Part shown: positions 1 to 8,098 of the stretch, in pieces
Position numbering within the stretch: position 1 is the stretch's first letter
Layout of the letters: each line of letters starts with the position of its first letter
IMG/VR virus record: IMGVR_UViG_2531839474_000001
Location: 1 to 8,098 of that record
Reading direction: 5' to 3' (one strand)
Source of the DNA: a virus
Lineage: Duplodnaviria; Heunggongvirae; Uroviricota; Caudoviricetes
DNA length: 8,098 bases
Program-made: the position numbers and the translations under genes
The notes under the pieces: model-generated
The model's input: only the letters and a program-made list of their open reading frames with translations
Databases searched by the model: none
Told to the model about the DNA's origin: nothing

Positions 1-263
1 CGCGCCACTGTACATCTGGCCACCCTGATACCTTCGCGTAACAACTGGCGCCAGACTTTACGCACACCGTACACCTGATGATTTTCATCGTATACGCGCT
101 GTATCTCTCTCTTCAGCCAGTCATCGCGCTGAGCACGGGCACTGCGTTTATCAGGATGATGTCGCTGTTGCTGACAGTGGTAATACGTTGACGGGGCAAT
201 ATGCAGTTCACTGCATACCGGTCCGACCCCGTACTGCTCACGCAGCTTATCCAGCAGCGGCAT
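1..263 (-). CDS. IS3-family transposase OrfB (DDE catalytic part), N-terminal portion only; continues past the window edge
   Basis: Minus-strand frame -1 relative to orfA starts at an ATG overlapping the orfA stop and translates [88 protein letters not shown], consistent with IS629 OrfB. Open to position 1. Confidence 0.8.
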   Translation of the reverse strand, partial: MPLLDKLREQYGVGPVCSELHIAPSTYYHCQQQRHHPDKRSARAQRDDWLKREIQRVYDENHQVYGVRKVWRQLLREGIRVARCTVA

Positions 264-589
264 TATTTTTTCCAGAGGCGGTCGAACTCCGCCTTCGCAA
301 AATAAGCGGAAGCCTGGCGAAGGATATCGTTACTGCGGCGCAGTTCACGATTTTCACGTTCCAGCTCTTTCAGACGCTGACGTTCAGCGGTGGTGAGTCC
401 ACCATCACCACTCCCGGTATCCCGCTCATGCTGACGAACCCACACACGCAGAGTCTCTGGTGTACAGCCAATCTTTGGGGCAATGGAACAAATTGCCGCC
501 CATTGTGAGTCATATTCGCCCTGACTTTCCAGAACCATACGAACTGCCCGTTGACGGACCTCGGGGGAAAAACGTGTATTTTTAGTCAT
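263..589 (-). CDS. IS3-family transposase OrfA (helix-turn-helix, leucine-zipper part)
   Basis: 108-aa [54 protein letters not shown]...[28 protein letters not shown], matching my memory of IS629 OrfA. It ends in LWKK with an A-rich run (tggaaaaaataatg on the minus strand) at the overlap with orfB. Confidence 0.9.
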
Positions 590-667
590 CCTGTTTACCT
601 CTTTCTCAGGGAGTTTAGTCTCCAGGATTCCCGGGGCGGTTCAGTTCGGACTGAAAGGAGCAAGTGT

Positions 668-958
668 ATGACGGGCAAAGAGGCAATTATTCATTACCTG
701 GGGACGCATAATAGCTTCTGTGCGCCGGACGTTGCCGCGCTAACAGGCGCAACAGTAACCAGCATAAATCAGGCCGCGGCTAAAATGGCACGGGCAGGTC
801 TTCTGGTTATCGAAGGTAAGGTCTGGCGAACGGTGTATTACCGGTTTGCTACCAAGGAAGAACGGGAAGGAAAGATGAGCACGAACCTAATTTTTAAGGA
901 GTGTCGCCAGAGTGCCGCGATGAAACGGGTATTGGCGGTATATGGAGTTAAAAGATGA
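668..958 (+). CDS. hypothetical phage protein, possible winged-helix DNA-binding fold
   Basis: ATG at 668 is preceded by AAGGAG (655..660) at 7 nt spacing; 96 aa. The segment PDVAALTGATVTSINQAAAKMARAGLLVIEGKVWRTVYY resembles a wHTH recognition helix plus wing. The listed ORF 551..958 is an in-frame upstream extension into the IS end and is unlikely to be the real start. Confidence 0.55.
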   Translation: MTGKEAIIHYLGTHNSFCAPDVAALTGATVTSINQAAAKMARAGLLVIEGKVWRTVYYRFATKEEREGKMSTNLIFKECRQSAAMKRVLAVYGVKR

Positions 959-1038
959 CCATCTACATCACTGAGCTAATAACAGGCCTGCTGGTAATCG
1001 CAGGCCTTTTTATTTGGGGGAGAGTAAATCGTGGTTGA
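955..1038 (+). CDS. possible 27-aa hydrophobic peptide (MTIYITELITGLLVIAGLFIWGRVNRG)
   Basis: ATG at 955 overlaps the stop of the upstream gene (ATGA); it has a single predicted transmembrane segment. Too short for composition-based support. Confidence 0.25.
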   Translation: MTIYITELITGLLVIAGLFIWGRVNRG

Positions 1039-1237
1039 GTTGATTTTTTCTGCATTGAGGATTCTCGGTGCTATGTGGATGGTGGCGACGTTCATTGTGG
1101 TTGCCAGCAGTTTTGTCCGGCTGGTAGGCGAAGGTAAAGACCTGGTTGGTGTGCTTTTCGGTAGCATTTTCCTGTGGGTGATTATCGGTGTTGCGCCTGT
1201 CGCTGTAGCAAAAATGGCGTGGCGTTTTGTGAGTTGA
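1031..1237 (+). CDS. small hydrophobic protein, two predicted transmembrane helices (68 aa)
   Basis: GTG start at 1031 overlaps the end of the 27-aa ORF; a GGAGA-like SD lies upstream. Sequence MVELIFSALRILGAMWMVATFIVVASSFVRLVGEGKDLVGVLFGSIFLWVIIGVAPVAVAKMAWRFVS. It is co-oriented and ends 8 nt before ninB. Confidence 0.45.
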   Translation: MVELIFSALRILGAMWMVATFIVVASSFVRLVGEGKDLVGVLFGSIFLWVIIGVAPVAVAKMAWRFVS

Positions 1238-1244
1238 GGTGACA

Positions 1245-1691
1245 ATGAAGCAAATATACATGCTTCGCAACGAAGCAATCAGAAACAACGCCATAGACGC
1301 AATACTCTCACTTCCGATCGACGACAAGTCACCTCACGAAGTCCACATTAAAGAACCAAAGCGGAGCAATCCTCAAAACCGCCTTATGTGGGCGTTATTG
1401 CAGGACGTATCACGTCAGGTGCTTTGGCATGGACAGAGACTTGCGCCGGAGGACTGGAAAGACCTGTTCACTGCCCTGTGGCTTAAGACCAAAAAACTGG
1501 AGCAACGAAGTGTGCCTGGTATCGATGGTGGCGTTGTCATGCTTGGCGTGCGTACCAGCAAAATGCGAAAGGCCAGCATGACTGAGCTTATCGAAATCAT
1601 GTTTTGGTTCGGCTCAGAGCGCAACGTGCGGTGGAGTGATGACTCCCGGCGAGAGTATGAATGGTCACAACGAAAAGGTAGGGCTGCATGA
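1245..1691 (+). CDS. ninB: NinB (Orf-family recombination mediator)
   Basis: Translation MKQIYMLRNEAIRNNAIDAI...NPQNRLMWALLQDVSRQVLWHGQRL...[23 protein letters not shown] aligns along its length with lambda NinB as I recall it (MKKLTFEIRSP...DQNRKLWACLGDVSRQVEWHGRWL...GVKWSDEARLALEWKARWGDRAA). ATG 1245 preferred over the GTG at 1239; stop overlaps the next start. Confidence 0.9.
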   Translation: MKQIYMLRNEAIRNNAIDAILSLPIDDKSPHEVHIKEPKRSNPQNRLMWALLQDVSRQVLWHGQRLAPEDWKDLFTALWLKTKKLEQRSVPGIDGGVVMLGVRTSKMRKASMTELIEIMFWFGSERNVRWSDDSRREYEWSQRKGRAA

Positions 1692-2215
1692 CTATCAAAT
1701 CAAATACACCAGCACACGACAAGGACTGCTGGCAAACGCCGCTTTGGCTTTTTGATGCGCTGGATATTGAGTTTGGATTCTGGCTGGATTCAGCTGCGAG
1801 CGACAAAAATGCTCTGTGCGCTCACTGGCTAACTGAGGCCGACGACGCACTCAATTCTGAGTGGATAAGCCACGGTGCAATCTGGAATAACCCACCGTAC
1901 AGCAATATCAGGCCGTGGGTGGAAAAAGCCGCTGAGCAGTGCATACAACAGCGACAGACGGTAGTGATGCTTGTGCCAGAGGATATGTCTGTCGGATGGT
2001 TCAGCAAGGCTCTGGAGAGTGTTGACGAAGTTCGCATTATCACTGATGGACGGATTAATTTTATCGAACCATCGACAGGGCTGGAGAAGAAGGGAAACAG
2101 TAAAGGCTCCATGCTGCTGATTTGGCGACCGTTCATCAGTCCTCGACGGATGTTTACTACCGTATCCAAAGCGGCATTGATGGCGATCGGGCAGGGCGTC
2201 AGGAGGGCGGCATGA
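1688..2215 (+). CDS. phage Dam-like DNA N6-adenine methyltransferase
   Basis: 175 aa with the catalytic NPPY motif ([10 protein letters not shown]) and an N-terminal [17 protein letters not shown] region typical of the phage Dam family found in lambdoid nin regions. ATGA overlap with ninB stop and ninE start. No restriction endonuclease gene is adjacent. Confidence 0.8.
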
Positions 2216-2394
2216 GGCGACAGCGACGAAGTTTCACCGACATCATCTGCGAAAACTGCAAATACCTTCCAACGAAACGCTACAGAAATAAACGCAAGCC
2301 AATCCCAAAAGAATCTGACGTAAAAACCTTCAATTACACGGCTCACCTGTGGGATATCCGGTGGCTAAGAAATCGTGCGAGGAAAACAAGGTGA
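2212..2394 (+). CDS. ninE: NinE
   Basis: [60 protein letters not shown] is near-identical to lambda NinE from memory. AGGAGG lies 5 nt upstream of the ATG. The listed ORF 2122..2394 is an in-frame upstream extension. Confidence 0.9.
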
Positions 2395-2561
2395 TTGACC
2401 AAAATCGAAGTTACGAACAAGAAAGCGTCGAGCGAGCTTTAACGTGCGCTAACTGCGGTCAGAAGCTGCATGTGCTGGAAGTTCACGTATGTGAGCACTG
2501 CTGCGCAGAACTGATGAGCGATCCGAATAGCTCAATGTACGAGGAAGAAAACGATGAGTGA
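2391..2561 (+). CDS. ninF: NinF (Cys-rich zinc-ribbon-like)
   Basis: From GTG 2391 the product [56 protein letters not shown] matches lambda NinF ([28 protein letters not shown]...). GAGGA SD lies 7 nt upstream; the upstream ATG at 2349 would overlap ninE by 46 nt. Confidence 0.85.
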
Positions 2562-2823
2562 TTTCTCTGAGCTTATTTCCTTCAAAAAAGACAGAGAAGA
2601 AATGCGGACTGAATCTGTCTATTACGTTCAACACCGGAATAAACGCTCGGTGCTTGATCAGGAGTTGGTTATTACCGGAGACCTGGCATTCAGAACATAT
2701 AAGGCCAGCATGGAAATGAAGGATTTCCCTAAATGTGGTTCTGAAAGAGAAGCTGCGTTAAAGCTGGCTGAGTGGATGCAGAGAATGGCTGCTGCAATTG
2801 AGAATTACTGGAGTGAACCATAA
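2554..2823 (+). CDS. hypothetical nin-region protein (89 aa), function unknown
   Basis: Complete ORF translationally coupled at both ends (ATG overlaps the ninF stop; its TAA overlaps the next ATG). I do not recognise it as a lambda nin protein. Confidence 0.6.
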   Translation: MSDFSELISFKKDREEMRTESVYYVQHRNKRSVLDQELVITGDLAFRTYKASMEMKDFPKCGSEREAALKLAEWMQRMAAAIENYWSEP

Positions 2824-3113
2824 TGGCTAACCTACGCAAAGAAGCGCGCGGCAGAGAATGCCAGGTACGTATTTACGGCGTATGCAATGGCAATCCTGAA
2901 ACTACAGTTCTGGCACATTACCGGATGGCTGGAATTTGCGGAACGGGAATGAAGCCTGACGACCTGATCGGCGCATGGGCTTGTAGCGCGTGTCACGATG
3001 AAATCGACCGACGCACAATGATTATCGACAACAAAGATGCCAGACTTTACCACCTCGAAGGCGTGATCAGGACGCAGGCGATACTGCTGAAGGAGGGGAA
3101 GATTAAGTCATGA
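2823..3113 (+). CDS. ybcO: YbcO-like DUF1364 protein (putative metal-binding nuclease)
   Basis: 96 aa, MANLRKEARGRECQVRIYGVCNGNPETTVLAHYRMAGICGTGMKPDDLIGAWACSACHDEIDRR..., with the conserved Cys/His pattern I recall from DLP12 YbcO. Recognition is from memory. Confidence 0.75.
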   Translation: MANLRKEARGRECQVRIYGVCNGNPETTVLAHYRMAGICGTGMKPDDLIGAWACSACHDEIDRRTMIIDNKDARLYHLEGVIRTQAILLKEGKIKS

Positions 3114-3472
3114 ACGAATATCAGTTTGTGCTTCCATACCCGCCGTCGTTGAATACCTACTGGCGAAGACGGGGAAGCCAATACTACATCAGCGATAAAG
3201 GCCAGAAATACCGAAAAGACGTTCAGCAAATCATCCACCAACTCAAGTTAGATATTTTCACCAAATCACGACTCCGCATCAAAGTCATCGCAGACGTTCC
3301 AGACTCCCGCCGCCGCGACCTCGATAACATCCTGAAAGGTTTACTCGACTCCCTTATCCACGCCGGATTTGCGGAAGACGACGAGCAATTCGATGACATT
3401 CGCGTAATTCGTGGTGTGAAAGTACCAGGCGGAAGGCTTGGAATAAAAATCACCGAACTGGAGAACGCATGA
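3110..3472 (+). CDS. rusA: RusA Holliday-junction resolvase
   Basis: 120 aa; the motifs LPYPPSLNTYWRRRG, DVPDSRRRDLDNILKGLLDSL and GGRLGIKITELE match the RusA family (E. coli RusA: LPWPPSNNRYYRHNRG...PDRRRRDLDNLQKAAFDAL...GGRLELTITEM). Confidence 0.9.
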   Translation: MNEYQFVLPYPPSLNTYWRRRGSQYYISDKGQKYRKDVQQIIHQLKLDIFTKSRLRIKVIADVPDSRRRDLDNILKGLLDSLIHAGFAEDDEQFDDIRVIRGVKVPGGRLGIKITELENA

Positions 3473-3657
3473 ACGCCACAATTCAAACGATACCAGAGCT
3501 TCTTATCCATACACGAGGCAATCAGACCGAAGTGGCAAGGATGCTTTCCTGCGCAAGAGGAACAGTGCTCAAGTACAACCGAGACAGCAAAGGCGAGCGT
3601 CATGTAATAGTTAACGGCGTCCTGATGGTCAAACAGGGCAAGAGGGGAAGACGATGA
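3469..3657 (+). CDS. ninH: NinH
   Basis: 62 aa; TIPELLIHTRGNQTEVARMLSCARGTVLKYNRDSKGERHVIVNGVLMV matches lambda NinH (TIPDMLVEAYGNQTEVARRLKCSRGTVRKYVDDKDGKMHAIVNDVLMV). Start and stop both in ATGA overlaps. Confidence 0.85.
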   Translation: MNATIQTIPELLIHTRGNQTEVARMLSCARGTVLKYNRDSKGERHVIVNGVLMVKQGKRGRR

Positions 3658-4277
3658 GACTCGAAAGCGTAGCTAAATTTCATTCGCCAAAAAGCCCGAT
3701 GATGAGCGACTCACCACGGGCCACGGCTTCTGACTCTCTTTCCGGTACTGATGTGATGGCTGCTATGGGGATGGCACAATCACAGGCCGGATTCGGTATG
3801 GCTGCATTCTGCGGTAAGCATGAACTCAGCCAGAACGACAAACAAAAGGCTATCAACTATCTGATGCAATTTGCACACAAGGTATCGGGGAAATACCGTG
3901 GTGTGGCAAAGCTCGAAGGAAATACTAAGGCAAAGGTACTGCAAGTGCTCGCAACATTCGCTTATGCGGATTATTGCCGTAGTGCCGCTACGCCGGGCGC
4001 AAGATGCAGAGATTGCCACGGTACAGGCCGTGCGGTTGATATAGCCAAAACAGAGCAGTGGAGGATAGTTGCTGAGAAAGAGTGCGGAAGATGTAAAGGC
4101 GTCGGTTATTCAAGAATGCCAGCAAGCGCCGCATATCGCGCTGTGACGATGCTAATCCCAAACCTTACCCAACCCACCTGGTCACGCACTGTTAAGCCGC
4201 TGTATGACGCTCTGGTTGTGCAATGCCACAAGGAAGAGTCAATCGCAGACAACATTTTGAATGCGATCACACGTTAG
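3654..4277 (+). CDS. Q: late-gene antiterminator Q (lambda type)
   Basis: 207 aa, MRLESVAKFHSPKSPMMSDSPRATASDSLSGTDVMAAMGMAQSQAGFGMAAFCGKHELSQNDKQKAINYLMQFAHKVSGKYRGVAKLEGNTKAKVLQVLATFAYADYCRSAATPGARCRDCHGTGR..., essentially the lambda Q sequence as I recall it, including the Cys-rich zinc-binding region. Confidence 0.95.
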   Translation: MRLESVAKFHSPKSPMMSDSPRATASDSLSGTDVMAAMGMAQSQAGFGMAAFCGKHELSQNDKQKAINYLMQFAHKVSGKYRGVAKLEGNTKAKVLQVLATFAYADYCRSAATPGARCRDCHGTGRAVDIAKTEQWRIVAEKECGRCKGVGYSRMPASAAYRAVTMLIPNLTQPTWSRTVKPLYDALVVQCHKEESIADNILNAITR

Positions 4278-4319
4278 CGCCATGATTGCCACGGATGGCA
4301 ACATATTAACGGCATAATA

Positions 4320-4375
4320 TTGACTTTTTGAATAACTTTGGGGAAACTTGACACCAATAATGGGCGTTTTTTACA
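4320..4375 (+). promoter_or_regulatory. late promoter pR' with Q-utilisation (qut) region
   Basis: TTGACT (4320..4325), a 17-nt spacer TTTTGAATAACTTTGGG, then GAAACT (4343..4348). This is collinear with lambda pR' (TTGACT-TATTGAATAAAATTGGG-TAAATT-TGACTCAACGATGGG) and sits just downstream of Q. Similarity to lambda ends shortly after the expected transcription start. Confidence 0.6.
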
Positions 4376-4514
4376 TGTCATTGATGAGTCTCAATAACCT
4401 GCCGCCGAGTAGTTTTTATGCTCTGAATTGTATTTGTGTAGTAAACATGCTGACTGCAATGTAATAGAGTTTTTTTAGCCTGTAACCTCTTGACGGCATT
4501 GAATTGCTTTTGTT

Positions 4515-5225
4515 ATGAGTTGTAAGCCAATGTTATCATCTTGTATTGGGGTGGTTATGAAGGATGGTGCGCTGCTCAGGAGTTCTTCACTTTTTATTGC
4601 CTACATGGGATGCCTTGGATGGGGGAGTGCTTATTTCTATGGATGGGGTACTTCTTTTTACTACGGCTTCCCATGGTGGATTGTAGGTGCAGGTGTTGAT
4701 GATGTTGCCAGAAGTTTATTTTTTGCAGTTATCGTCATTGCTATATTTCTTATCGGTTGGGGTATTGGTGTTGTATTCTTTTTCGCAGTGAAAAGAAAAC
4801 ATTCTATGCAAGAGCTAAATGTATTTCGCCTTTATTTTGCTGTGGAATTATTGTTTGTGCCGGCAATTATTGAGTTTTCTATATTGAGACAGAAGATTCA
4901 GGTACCTCTTTTGCTACTGTCAGCAGCGATTGCGCTGGCGGTTACAATTTCGATAAGATCTTATGGGCGATTTTTATCGGTATCATGCTTCTATGATAAG
5001 CCATTTATAAAAAAACATTTTTTTGAGATTGTGATGATTGCTTTTGTGGCATATTTCTGGCTTTTTTCATTTCTGACAGGATATTACAAACCACAGTTTA
5101 AGAAAGAATATGAAATGATTAATTATAATGATGGTTGGTATTATGTTCTTGCTCATTATGATAATTGTCTGGTTTTGTCTACTTCTTTCAATGCAGGTAG
5201 TAAAAGGTTTGTCATTTATCAATAA
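4515..5225 (+). CDS. uncharacterised polytopic inner-membrane protein (cargo gene in the Q-S interval)
   Basis: Only long ORF in a clearly AT-rich stretch; 236 aa from ATG 4515 (alternative starts at 4530 and 4557, none with a strong SD). About five hydrophobic helices (e.g. SLFFAVIVIAIFLIGWGIGVVFFFAV, VPLLLLSAAIALAVTISI, FFEIVMIAFVAYFWLFSFLTG) and an aromatic-rich C-terminal tail. No recognisable family. Confidence 0.6.
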   Translation: MSCKPMLSSCIGVVMKDGALLRSSSLFIAYMGCLGWGSAYFYGWGTSFYYGFPWWIVGAGVDDVARSLFFAVIVIAIFLIGWGIGVVFFFAVKRKHSMQELNVFRLYFAVELLFVPAIIEFSILRQKIQVPLLLLSAAIALAVTISIRSYGRFLSVSCFYDKPFIKKHFFEIVMIAFVAYFWLFSFLTGYYKPQFKKEYEMINYNDGWYYVLAHYDNCLVLSTSFNAGSKRFVIYQ

Positions 5226-5406
5226 GCACAAGATAAGAATCTTCAGGTTGATATTGTAAGGACCAGAATTTAATTGGCTGCATAAATAATATTTTAAGTT
5301 GCAAGTTGGCTATTCGTAGGAATAGAACCTTAGGCATGCTGAATGCGTTTTCTGAACATTGTTTTATAAACTGTGTCTGCTTGCTGTTGTGATCCTGCTT
5401 TTAGTG

Positions 5407-5517
5407 ATGGTGATGATGGATTTCACCAGCAGGATAATGTTGGTACTGACTGATGGCGCTCTGGTCTGCGGCATTGTGGTATTGCTGTGGCCGATGATGA
5501 AAGAACAGAATGAATAA
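5407..5517 (+). CDS. possible small hydrophobic peptide (36 aa, MVMMDFTSRIMLVLTDGALVCGIVVLLWPMMKEQNE)
   Basis: Short ORF with one predicted transmembrane segment, lying antisense to a listed minus-strand ORF. No convincing SD; in-frame GTG/TTG alternatives lie upstream. Speculative. Confidence 0.2.
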   Translation: MVMMDFTSRIMLVLTDGALVCGIVVLLWPMMKEQNE

Positions 5518-5703
5518 TTCTTGACTTTTTTGTTTACTGTTTATTAAAAAATCAACCGCATGGTGAATCCTCCTTGGAGGGGCTAAATGATCGAGTTTTA
5601 AGGGCACGTAGCGAGTTCTGTTTGATCATTGCAGAACTTAGCGGGAGGCGCCATGCGTACATCACTAATGTTATTTCCTTCTATCATTTTCCTTGTGAGT
5701 TCT

Positions 5704-5730
5704 GGCTGCGCATGGCGCGGCCTTTTTTTT
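5704..5730 (+). terminator. rho-independent terminator (plus-strand orientation)
   Basis: GGCTGCGC (5704..5711), loop ATG, GCGCGGCC (5715..5722) forms an 8-bp GC-rich stem with one G-U pair, followed by a run of eight T (5723..5730). Confidence 0.6.
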
Positions 5731-5919
5731 ATGACCTGCCACTGGCAGATGGTCATCCTGTGATTTGATTCCGGTTCCGGCTTTTTAACTCTGTTCCTGT
5801 ACACGGGAGAAATTCTATGTCGATTAATCGTTATGATATTGGTTACAAGAAGTACCACGTATTGTGTTGAGATAGAAAGCATGGTGCCAGAGGTAAATGC
5901 AGCAGCATAATAAAAAAGA

Positions 5920-5959
5920 GCCAGCGCAGAAGAGAACGGGTAAAAGAGTCTGCGCTGGC
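5920..5959. repeat. perfect 11-bp inverted repeat (GCCAGCGCAGA / TCTGCGCTGGC) separated by 18 nt
   Basis: Arms at 5920..5930 and 5949..5959. A second small hairpin GGGG-ATATT-CCCC follows at 5962..5974. No T-run follows either, so it is not a canonical intrinsic terminator. Confidence 0.55.
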
Positions 5960-6075
5960 GTGGGGATATTCCCCGTGGAGAAATGATATGTAACACACAT
6001 CGGGAACCTTTCTATATAAACATTATCATTATTGTCAATCATAACAGTCAGGTATTATGACGTTTATGCATCAGG

Positions 6076-6104
6076 GCCATCAGGAATTAACTGGTGGCTT
6101 TTTA
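6076..6104 (+). terminator. rho-independent terminator about 35 nt upstream of the holin start
   Basis: GCCATCAG (6076..6083), loop GAATTAA, CTGGTGGC (6091..6098) forms an 8-bp stem with one G-U pair, followed by TTTTTATTG. Confidence 0.5.
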
Positions 6105-6138
6105 TTGTTGTCAGCTTCCGGATAACGGGAGACGGGGT

Positions 6139-6354
6139 ATGTACCAGATGGAAAAAATAACAACAGGTGTGTCATACACCACGTCAGCGGTGGGGACGGG
6201 ATACTGGCTACTGCAGTTGCTGGACAAAGTCTCTCCGTCCCAGTGGGTGGCAATAGGTGTGCTGGGAAGTCTGCTGTTTGGCCTGCTGACGTATCTGACA
6301 AATCTTTATTTCAAGATTAAAGAAGATAAGCGTAAGGCTGCGAGAGGTGAATAA
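6139..6354 (+). CDS. S: class II holin (phage 21 S-type pinholin) with dual-start motif
   Basis: From ATG 6139 the product [71 protein letters not shown] (71 aa) matches phage 21 S as recalled ([68 protein letters not shown]). A second in-frame ATG at 6148 gives the shorter form. Stop overlaps the endolysin ATG. Confidence 0.9.
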
Positions 6355-6851
6355 TGTCGCCGTCATTACGCAAGGCTGTTGCAGCTGCTATTGGTGGTGG
6401 GGCTGTTGCCATAGCGTCTGTGCTCATCACTGGTCCAGGTGGTAACGATGGTCTGGAAGGTGTCAGCTACATACCATACAAAGATATCGTTGGCGTATGG
6501 ACTGTATGTCACGGACACACCGGAAAAGACATCATGCCCGGTAAAACGTATACCGAAGCAGAATGCAAAGCCCTCCTGAATAAAGACCTTGCCACGGTCG
6601 CCAGACAAATTAACCCGTACATCAACGTCGATATACCGGAAACAACGCGCGGCGCTCTTTACTCGTTCGTTTACAACGTGGGCGCTGGCAATTTCAGAAC
6701 ATCGACGCTTCTTCGCAAAATAAACCAGGGCGATATCAAAGGCGCATGTGATCAGCTACGGCGCTGGACATACGCTGGCGGTAAGCAATGGAAAGGGCTG
6801 ATGACTCGCCGCGAGATTGAGCGTGAAGTCTGTTTGTGGGGGCAACAATGA
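6354..6851 (+). CDS. R: SAR endolysin (phage 21 R-type lysozyme with N-terminal signal-anchor-release domain)
   Basis: 165 aa; N-terminal Gly/Ala-rich weakly hydrophobic segment [20 protein letters not shown] followed by a lysozyme catalytic region ([25 protein letters not shown]). Near-identical to phage 21 R as I recall it. Confidence 0.95.
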
Positions 6852-7285
6852 GCAGGGTAACCGTTATTATCTCCGCTCTGGTTATCTGCATTATCGCCTG
6901 CCTGTCATGGGCTGTTAATCATTACCGTGATAACGCCATCGCCTACAAAGAGCAGCGCGATAAAGCCACATCCATCATCGCTGATATGCAGAAGCGGCAA
7001 CGTGATGTAGCAGAACTTGACGCCAGATACACAAAGGAGCTTGCTGATGCTAATGCGACTATCGAAAGTCTCCGTGCTGATGTTTCTGCTGGGCGTAAGC
7101 GCCTGCAAGTCTCCGCCACCTGTGCAAAGTCAACGACCGGAGCCAGCAGCATGGGCGATGGAGAAAGCCCAGGACTTACAGCAGATGCTGAACTCAATTA
7201 TTACCGTCTCCGAGGTGGAATCGACAAGATAACCGCGCAGGTTAACTACCTGCAGGAATACATCAGGACGCAGTGCTTAAAATAA
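6848..7285 (+). CDS. Rz: Rz i-spanin
   Basis: From ATG 6848, [39 protein letters not shown]...RLQVSATC...QCLK matches lambda Rz ([39 protein letters not shown]...). N-terminal transmembrane anchor plus coiled-coil periplasmic domain. ATGA overlap with the endolysin stop. Confidence 0.9.
7047..7232 (+). CDS. Rz1: Rz1 o-spanin (outer-membrane lipoprotein), embedded in the +1 frame of Rz
   Basis: AAGGAG (7034..7039) lies 7 nt upstream of ATG 7047. Product [36 protein letters not shown]... has a signal peptide, a lipobox-like VSAC and a Pro-rich mature part, as in lambda Rz1. The start could instead be 7017 or 7053. Confidence 0.75.
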
Positions 7286-7322
7286 TTTTAATTTCACTGA
7301 AATTTAACAAGTGACTTTCAGG

Positions 7323-7352
7323 AAAATGCCTCGCAGATGCGGGGCATTTTTG
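7323..7352 (+). terminator. rho-independent terminator after the lysis cassette, possibly bidirectional
   Basis: ATGCCTCGC (7326..7334), loop AGAT, GCGGGGCAT (7339..7347) forms a 9-bp stem with one G-U pair, flanked by AAAA upstream and TTTTT downstream. Confidence 0.6.
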
Positions 7353-7434
7353 TACCGGTATTTCACCGCGCACCGCAGCGCACAATAAACACCGAACCTG
7401 ACCCTTTGGAATGGGCCTTTGAGGATACCAGTTA

Positions 7435-8052
7435 GTGCTGGCGAGCCTCGGTGGGCTGGTTTCCTGTGCGGCAAAGGTTCATTTCAAAGAAGCAGGCAAC
7501 GCCATGAATGAATTAATTGCGAATCATGACTTCGACTTTCGCCAGTTAGTTACCGCAGCAGAAGGTCAACCGGTAACTGACACCTTCCAGATTGCCAGGG
7601 CATTTGGTAAACGCCATCAGCATGTGATTAGGGCTATTAAATGTTTGAGATGTTCTGAGGAATTCTCGACAACCCATTTTTGGGCCGTCGAGAAAATCAA
7701 TGACTTAGGGATTTTTGACAAGAAACAGATTTACTACCGCATGGACTTTAGTGGCTTCGTTATGCTGGTTATGGGATTTAACGGGGCAAAAGCCGATGCT
7801 GTTAAAGAAGCCTATATCAATGCGTTTAACTGGATGTCAGCAGAACTCCGTAAGTACAGCGAAAGTTATGAAGCAGAACGTAACGCCGTAATGCTGGAGT
7901 ACATGAAAGAGAAGGATGTCGCCAGCATGTCAGGCCGTCTGCTCAATCGCTGGGGGAGAACGAAAAAACCTCAATTGCTTGCAAAGCTGGAACGTCTGGA
8001 GAGACAGGGACAGTTTTTATTACCGGGATTCGATAAAGGTATTCAAGCCTGA
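7435..8052 (+). CDS. Rha-family phage regulatory protein (often annotated as antirepressor)
   Basis: The segment PVTDTFQIARAFGKRHQHVIRAIKCL...YYRMDFSGFVMLVMGFNGAKADAVKEAYINAF resembles the Rha domain (compare SSREIAELTGKQHKHVLRDI in known Rha proteins). GTG start at 7435 has a GAGGA SD about 9 nt upstream; ATG 7504 (MNELIANHDF...) is an alternative start. Confidence 0.65.
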   Translation: MLASLGGLVSCAAKVHFKEAGNAMNELIANHDFDFRQLVTAAEGQPVTDTFQIARAFGKRHQHVIRAIKCLRCSEEFSTTHFWAVEKINDLGIFDKKQIYYRMDFSGFVMLVMGFNGAKADAVKEAYINAFNWMSAELRKYSESYEAERNAVMLEYMKEKDVASMSGRLLNRWGRTKKPQLLAKLERLERQGQFLLPGFDKGIQA

Positions 8053-8098
8053 CACATTATGCGCTGTATCGTCGCCGTATTCCCGCATTAACCATGAC

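Follow-up and report, generated by a model that had tools for sequence, protein, structure and literature searches.

The window analysed here, an 8,098-nucleotide stretch of a Caudoviricetes record (IMGVR_UViG_2531839474_000001, positions 1 to 8,098), opens with insertion-sequence DNA and then runs through the nin region of a lambdoid prophage. Its left end is filled by an IS3-family element (IS629/IS1203-like; 1 to ~643, minus strand), recognised by its transposase gene orfA (263-589), an ALIL programmed-frameshift pseudoknot (Rfam RF01497; 192-308; 120.9 bits) and a terminal repeat ending at 643. To the right of the element stand a remnant of gene P, comprising its last ~28 nt, and ren (668-958, following the RefSeq annotation of the corresponding locus in E. 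coli SLK172). Since the element lies inside these last ~28 nt of the replication gene P, the prophage is probably replication-defective. The SLK172 prophage matches the window over 643-8098 at 99.9%, and the exact IS/P junction was found in one piece in no complete E. coli genome of our collection.

Downstream of ren, a terminator scan placed an intrinsic terminator at 984-1015 (plus strand), in the tR2 position upstream of ninB-dam-ninE and with the same sequence as the terminator between ren and ninB of lambda; phage Nil2, too, has an annotated tR2 terminator in the equivalent place before ninB. Between this terminator and ninB the window has a 68-codon hydrophobic ORF (1031-1237, plus strand) that matched no Pfam or PADLOC model and corresponds to the hypothetical protein WP_000229807.1 in SLK172, whereas lambda has only a 73-nt gap between ren and ninB. 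The ninB gene, encoding the Orf recombination mediator, follows at 1245-1691 (plus strand; PF05772, E=7.6e-49; phrog_72), its start taken from RefSeq at the identical SLK172 locus. Next come dam (1688-2215, plus strand) and ninE (2212-2394, plus strand; PF05322, E=2.3e-41; RefSeq annotation), and the order after ninE is ninF, an 89-codon ORF (2554-2823, plus strand; no Pfam or PADLOC match, hypothetical in SLK172), the YbcO/DUF1364 gene, rusA, ninH and Q. The preliminary description had placed a methyltransferase gene in the nin region, and the NinB and NinE matches on its two sides bear this out. Between Q and the holin gene lies an AT-rich stretch (4278-6090), which is the slot holding stx in Stx phages; 4278-8098 overall has 44% G+C. 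This part of the window includes a 236-codon ORF of membrane-spanning appearance (4515-5225; no family match, frameshifted in SLK172), a DUF3927 ORF (5359-5517) and a 132-codon ORF on the minus strand (5598-5996), and a holin-lysozyme-Rz lysis cassette followed by a Rha-family gene completes the window at its right.

The ORF list and the sequence show dam as one uninterrupted reading frame of 175 codons, running from ATG to TGA with no frameshift or internal stop. It is joined to its neighbours by two ATGA overlaps on the plus strand, the first formed by the ninB stop and the dam start (1688-1691) and the second by the dam stop and the ninE start (2212-2215). Ahead of ninE stands a good Shine-Dalgarno sequence (AGGAGG); that of dam, AAGGTAGGG, is weaker. 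The overlaps at both ends bear out the earlier proposal that dam is translationally coupled to ninB and ninE, and lambdoid nin regions in general show such ATGA junctions (bioRxiv 10.1101/2020.10.05.325894). Opposite dam lies an antisense ORF (1822-2346) with no family match, which we treated as a chance ORF.

The product of dam belongs to the small phage family of N6-adenine DNA methyltransferases that includes the Dam enzymes of T1, HP1 and VT2. It matched Pfam PF05869, 'DNA N-6-adenine-methyltransferase (Dam)', with E=8.3e-65 and 218 bits (cut-off 28.1) over profile positions 1-167 of 169. It further matched TIGR01712, the NCBIfam equivalog for the phage N-6-adenine-methyltransferase, with 264.2 bits (cut-off 97.05) over positions 1-165 of 165, and PHROG 111 (phrog_111, 'DNA methyltransferase') with E=8.6e-88; its best PADLOC models are termed 'orphan methyltransferase'. 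Because the profile scores far exceed the curated cut-offs, dam is far more than a chance ORF. At the level of identity, 174 of the 175 residues (99.4%) are the same as in the dam product of VT2-Sakai, M.EcoVT2Dam (BAA94133). The sole change, I60 here for V60 there, is a conservative substitution and falls in a column that varies among homologues in a 32-sequence alignment. ORF175 of phage Nil2 matches Dam at 100% identity, and so does RefSeq WP_000153270.1 of E. coli SLK172, annotated as 'phage N-6-adenine-methyltransferase'; the ninB-dam-ninE block as a whole shows 95-97% DNA identity to many Stx-converting phages. The gene is thus already known, is named correctly by standard annotation pipelines and is very common.

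To locate the catalytic motifs, we aligned Dam with T1 Dam, HP1 Dam and 11 enterobacterial homologues, and used the alignment of 32 homologues as a second set. In the first alignment, the invariant columns include T17-P18, L33-D34, A37, N68-P69-P70-Y71-S72, R122 and N137/K139; the 32-sequence alignment gave the same picture of conservation, again with NPPY invariant. The catalytic motif IV, NPPY, was read directly at aa 68-71 (1889-1900, plus strand) in the context W-N-N-P-P-Y-S, and its loop would hold the flipped base here as it does in amino-methyltransferases at large. A motif I-like segment, L-D-S-A-A-S (aa 33-38; 1784-1801, plus strand), whose L33, D34 and A37 are invariant also in T1 and HP1 Dam, presumably forms the AdoMet-binding region, as suggested by the gamma-class order of the motifs. 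The N-terminal Q-T-P (aa 16-18; 1733-1741, plus strand), with T17 and P18 invariant, resembles the gamma-class motif X and may correspond to it. The order TP, LDxAA, NPPY within 71 residues is that of the gamma-class amino-methyltransferases. An NPPY-type N6-adenine DNA methyltransferase, as had been claimed from the first look at the DNA, is supported by PF05869, TIGR01712 and the motif itself, and the careful alignment, in which loss of the catalytic motif would have spoken against the claim, retained NPPY in every homologue including T1 and HP1 Dam.

Motif IV begins at residue 68, ~30 residues past the motif I-like segment, and no domain is inserted between them. Since motifs packed within 71 residues leave no room for it, Dam has no separate target-recognition domain. 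An AlphaFold model of Dam was of moderate quality (pLDDT 72.8, pTM 0.74), with aa 33-51 at pLDDT <50, and a Foldseek search of this model against the PDB returned no match at E<=0.001. A sequence search of the PDB with Dam yielded chance-level matches only (SdiA, a DHH protein), among them no methyltransferase and thus no solved relative by sequence. As far as the model goes, the evidence for a putative class I (Rossmann-like) AdoMet-dependent methyltransferase fold would be consistent rather than strong.

We compared Dam with the named members of its family and with the host enzyme of the same name. T1 Dam (M.EcoT1Dam, YP_003925; 32% identity to Dam here) and HP1 Dam (orf13, NP_043482; 35%) share with it the family PF05869/TIGR01712 and the invariant TP, LD..A, NPPY, R122 and N137-x-K139, and are likewise orphans in phage early regions. 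They differ in the type of phage, virulent siphovirus and P2-like, respectively, and in the neighbours of dam, and T1 Dam is in addition extended by ~45 aa at its N terminus and has an insertion of 14 aa relative to Dam here. In contrast, the host-type Dam family (alpha-class; E. coli Dam, T4 Dam, DpnM) gave no match, PF05869 being the only family found at E<=0.01, and the PDB sequence search returned no Dam chain. The alpha-class host Dam of E. coli (PDB 2ore/4rtk) differs in the order of its motifs, and the phage Dam has no counterpart to its target-recognition domain. The phage enzyme is ~100 residues shorter than host Dam. The term 'Dam-like' therefore holds for function and does not hold for family, and on sequence grounds the GATC specificity of the phage enzyme and of host Dam would be a case of convergence, not of orthology.

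The closest characterised relative is M.EcoVT2Dam, found in VT2-Sakai and also in 933W (L0094) and Phi24B (dam). It agrees with the gene here in length, in its position between ninB and ninE and in the ATGA junctions, and VT2-Sakai dam is annotated as a DNA N-6-adenine-methyltransferase, as is dam here in RefSeq. The prophages differ around it, however, and the prophage here does not have the Stx phage module: ninF, YbcO, RusA and NinH follow downstream, where Stx phages have Roi/NinG, and an IS lies upstream. M.EcoVT2Dam is stated in PMC6602927, citing Radlinska & Bujnicki 2001, to be 'known to target 5'-GATC-3'', and GATC is also the target predicted there for copies with 99% identity. Although the specificity of the enzyme had at first been called unknown from sequence, GATC can be inferred, because Dam differs from the enzyme so described by one residue only, I60V, at a variable position. 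Dam thus most probably methylates the adenine of GATC to N6-methyladenine.

A relaxed or additional specificity, in which adenines outside GATC would be methylated as by some phage and plasmid orphan methyltransferases, is unlikely. It would fit the 175 residues without a recognisable target-recognition domain, the non-specific action of other orphans on E. coli mobile elements (M.EcoGI/GII, M.EcoGIX) and the off-target methylation that may arise from over-produced Dam-like enzymes (PMC10810198). Yet M.EcoGI/GII and M.EcoGIX belong to other families, and the near-identical M.EcoVT2Dam is GATC-specific according to the statement in PMC6602927. Moreover, an O111 strain with two copies of M.EcoVT2Dam showed GATC, CTGCAG and CRARCAG as its only m6A motifs, CRARCAG being credited to another enzyme (PMC6602927). 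Two candidate relatives with broad specificity were considered and rejected. The paper on the non-specific Hia5-type enzymes is silent on VT2, HP1, T1 and PF05869, so that these enzymes give no grounds for doubting GATC specificity, and M.EcoGIX ('SAY' or non-specific) is plasmid-borne and single-strand-specific, and not the same type of gene. As Dam lacks a target-recognition domain and belongs to a family without a solved structure, we also considered that GATC might be read in an undescribed mode, for instance by a dimer or by loops of the catalytic domain alone, or that activity might need a co-translated partner such as NinB or might reach ssDNA or RNA; we regard this as very unlikely.

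Stx phages carry another prophage-borne orphan methyltransferase. M.EcoGV and M.EcoPA8orf6770P, which are of MT-A70 type, are likewise annotated as GATC adenine methyltransferases, and the PA-series phages, siblings of Phi-PA8, have a nin-region dam at ~95% nucleotide identity to dam here. The M.EcoGV/M.EcoPA8orf6770P family has a DPPW motif, is encoded close to the integrase end of the phage, depends on its partner PNB-2 and prefers 16S rRNA in vitro (PMC10810198). Dam gave no MT-A70 Pfam match and its motif is NPPY, not DPPW. The identification of dam with the Stx-phage 16S rRNA methyltransferase was therefore rejected, the latter being a distinct MT-A70/DPPW gene near the other phage end (PMC10810198), and we keep it as a caution. 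It offers the precedent, as an Stx-phage enzyme methylating 16S rRNA when bound to PNB-2, for supposing that the true substrate of Dam is RNA or ssDNA rather than duplex DNA, perhaps with help from another protein, for which the co-translated NinB would be a candidate. We consider this highly improbable: the precedent comes from a different family, PF05869 being the sole match of Dam; diverged homologues do not keep NinB as a neighbour; VT2 Dam is reported, in the statement of PMC6602927 quoted above, to methylate GATC in DNA; and the HP1 and T1 enzymes are listed as DNA Dam enzymes.

We next consider the distribution of dam and the slot that it occupies. Copies with at least 95% nucleotide identity are present in 1566 of 5426 complete E. 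coli genomes (~29%), with up to five per genome, and every full-length match listed is annotated as NinB, phage N-6-adenine-methyltransferase and NinE, in this order. More widely, tblastn detected relatives of Dam in 1901 phage records, T1 and HP1 Dam among them, spanning phages of Escherichia, Klebsiella, Vibrio, Lactococcus and Gordonia. Homologues at 66-73% identity in prophages of Serratia, Yersinia and Providencia are orphans in early regions with DUF1367 or small unknown ORFs as neighbours. Conserved adjacency of ninB and dam, which would have suggested a functional partnership, is absent in these diverged homologues, so that linkage to ninB does not characterise the family. The ninB-ninE slot is a mosaic cassette site: it holds dam here (1688-2215) and ninC plus ninD in lambda (compared over 3082-4124), and in a related prophage of strain OkiPb01711 (compared over 4390-5009) ninB abuts ninE directly. 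Compact overlaps are kept throughout, with 4-nt overlaps of the ATGA type at the ninB junctions in lambda and the related prophage and at both dam junctions here.

None of the window ORFs tested with Pfam and PADLOC matched a restriction endonuclease or defence system. As no neighbour in the window matches such a model, the methyltransferase is an orphan, and the statement that no restriction endonuclease is adjacent stands: the neighbours are NinB, NinE, NinF, YbcO, RusA, NinH and Q. The orphan state recurs in E. coli genomes and in the diverged homologues. Dam has weak PADLOC matches to models for type II methyltransferases (E=4.8e-07 and 1.1e-05), which might hint that it serves as the methylase in a restriction-modification system with an endonuclease encoded elsewhere or escaping recognition. 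However, the best PADLOC models are those for orphans, and each neighbour either is a standard nin, lysis or Q gene or matches no defence system. In addition, the order of NinB, Dam and NinE recurs under every listed full-length match among the 1566 genomes, the diverged homologues too have no nuclease partner, and a methylation-sensitive GATC endonuclease would be pointless in a Dam+ host. A restriction-modification origin thus retains next to no probability.

Taken together, the best explanation for dam is an S-adenosylmethionine-dependent GATC N6-adenine methyltransferase, an allele of M.EcoVT2Dam, expressed as a delayed-early gene and likely supplementing a limiting host Dam; we put the probability of this reading at about 85%. 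The enzyme would act as a bare catalytic domain, using S-adenosylmethionine as methyl donor to convert the adenine of GATC to N6-methyladenine. Because dam lies downstream of tR2 and is coupled through ATGA, delayed-early, N-dependent expression is predicted, in which dam would be produced alongside ninB and ninE on induction or infection, and only once N has brought about antitermination. In agreement with this prediction, Phi24B dam (528 nt) was recovered as an expressed product, and its qPCR pattern was tied to the lytic cycle (PMC3342100); the Phi24B product is 100% identical to VT2-Sakai Dam.

For the copy in the window, expression is uncertain, because the IS3-family element interrupts P ~1 kb upstream and may separate the nin block from pR. 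It is accordingly possible, though doubtful, that dam is an intact but unexpressed gene, left without pR transcription in a defective prophage by the IS in P and carried as a passenger heading to decay. The placement of the element described above, filling 1 to ~643 inside the last ~28 nt of P with its orfA, pseudoknot and terminal repeat, speaks for such silence, and a prophage methyltransferase predicted to be a Dam homologue, whose family may differ, was untranscribed in ST131 lysogens under the conditions used (PMC4659465). Against it, the reading frame is unbroken and the allele recurs with 100% identity in further genomes as well as a phage record, so that there is no sign of decay; moreover, IS3-family elements can permit read-through or outward transcription, and whatever lies beyond the element falls outside the window.

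Where dam is expressed, the supplementing role could take the following form. The phage enzyme would top up host Dam where this is limiting, and phage DNA that replicates rapidly would become fully methylated at GATC. Full methylation would in turn protect this DNA, in some hosts, against GATC endonucleases that are sensitive to methylation, and also against nicking by MutH at unmethylated GATC. In mismatch repair, MutH incises unmethylated GATC. Since a GATC enzyme adds no new mark in Dam+ E. coli, completing GATC methylation is the likelier role, and we infer that supplementing host Dam methylation is the most likely one; the roles proposed in the preliminary description, anti-restriction and altered host methylation, are generic. 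The role of phage Dam enzymes was described in 2020 as 'still not well understood' (PMC7556043), and the Stx phage 933W reportedly requires host Dam for stable lysogeny (Murphy et al. 2008, as cited in PMC3342100).

We also counted GATC in the window and found 12 sites (1316, 2185, 2520, 2656, 2966, 3065, 4265, 4957, 5391, 5589, 5624 and 6750) where 30.6 were expected, a ratio of 0.39; counts of 12 or fewer arose in 0.05% of second-order Markov simulations. CTAG, with 5.1 expected, occurs 0 times in the window. The observed-to-expected ratio for GATC was similar in lambdoid regions with and without dam (0.39-0.59 overall, 0.46-0.59 in the regions compared with the window, 0.56-0.57 without dam) and gave no signal of the gene. 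Given this similarity, the idea that having dam acts at the genome level finds no support, and the depletion reflects the general avoidance of GATC by enterobacterial phages.

For this window little is at stake, as dam is a routine component of a lambdoid prophage and a close relative has been cloned and characterised. The wider interest belongs to the family, where the question is how so small an enzyme reads GATC, in a gene carried by more than a quarter (~29%) of complete E. coli genomes, including those of Stx phages. Protein databases also hold fused forms of the product: the entries P0001 and P0023, with 41 and 12 member sequences, respectively, are Dam-NinE fusions of 233-235 aa that combine PF05869 with PF05322, and presumably are read-through products arising from a lost ATGA stop. 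Further chimeric entries join Dam to fragments of CII, RusA or NinB.
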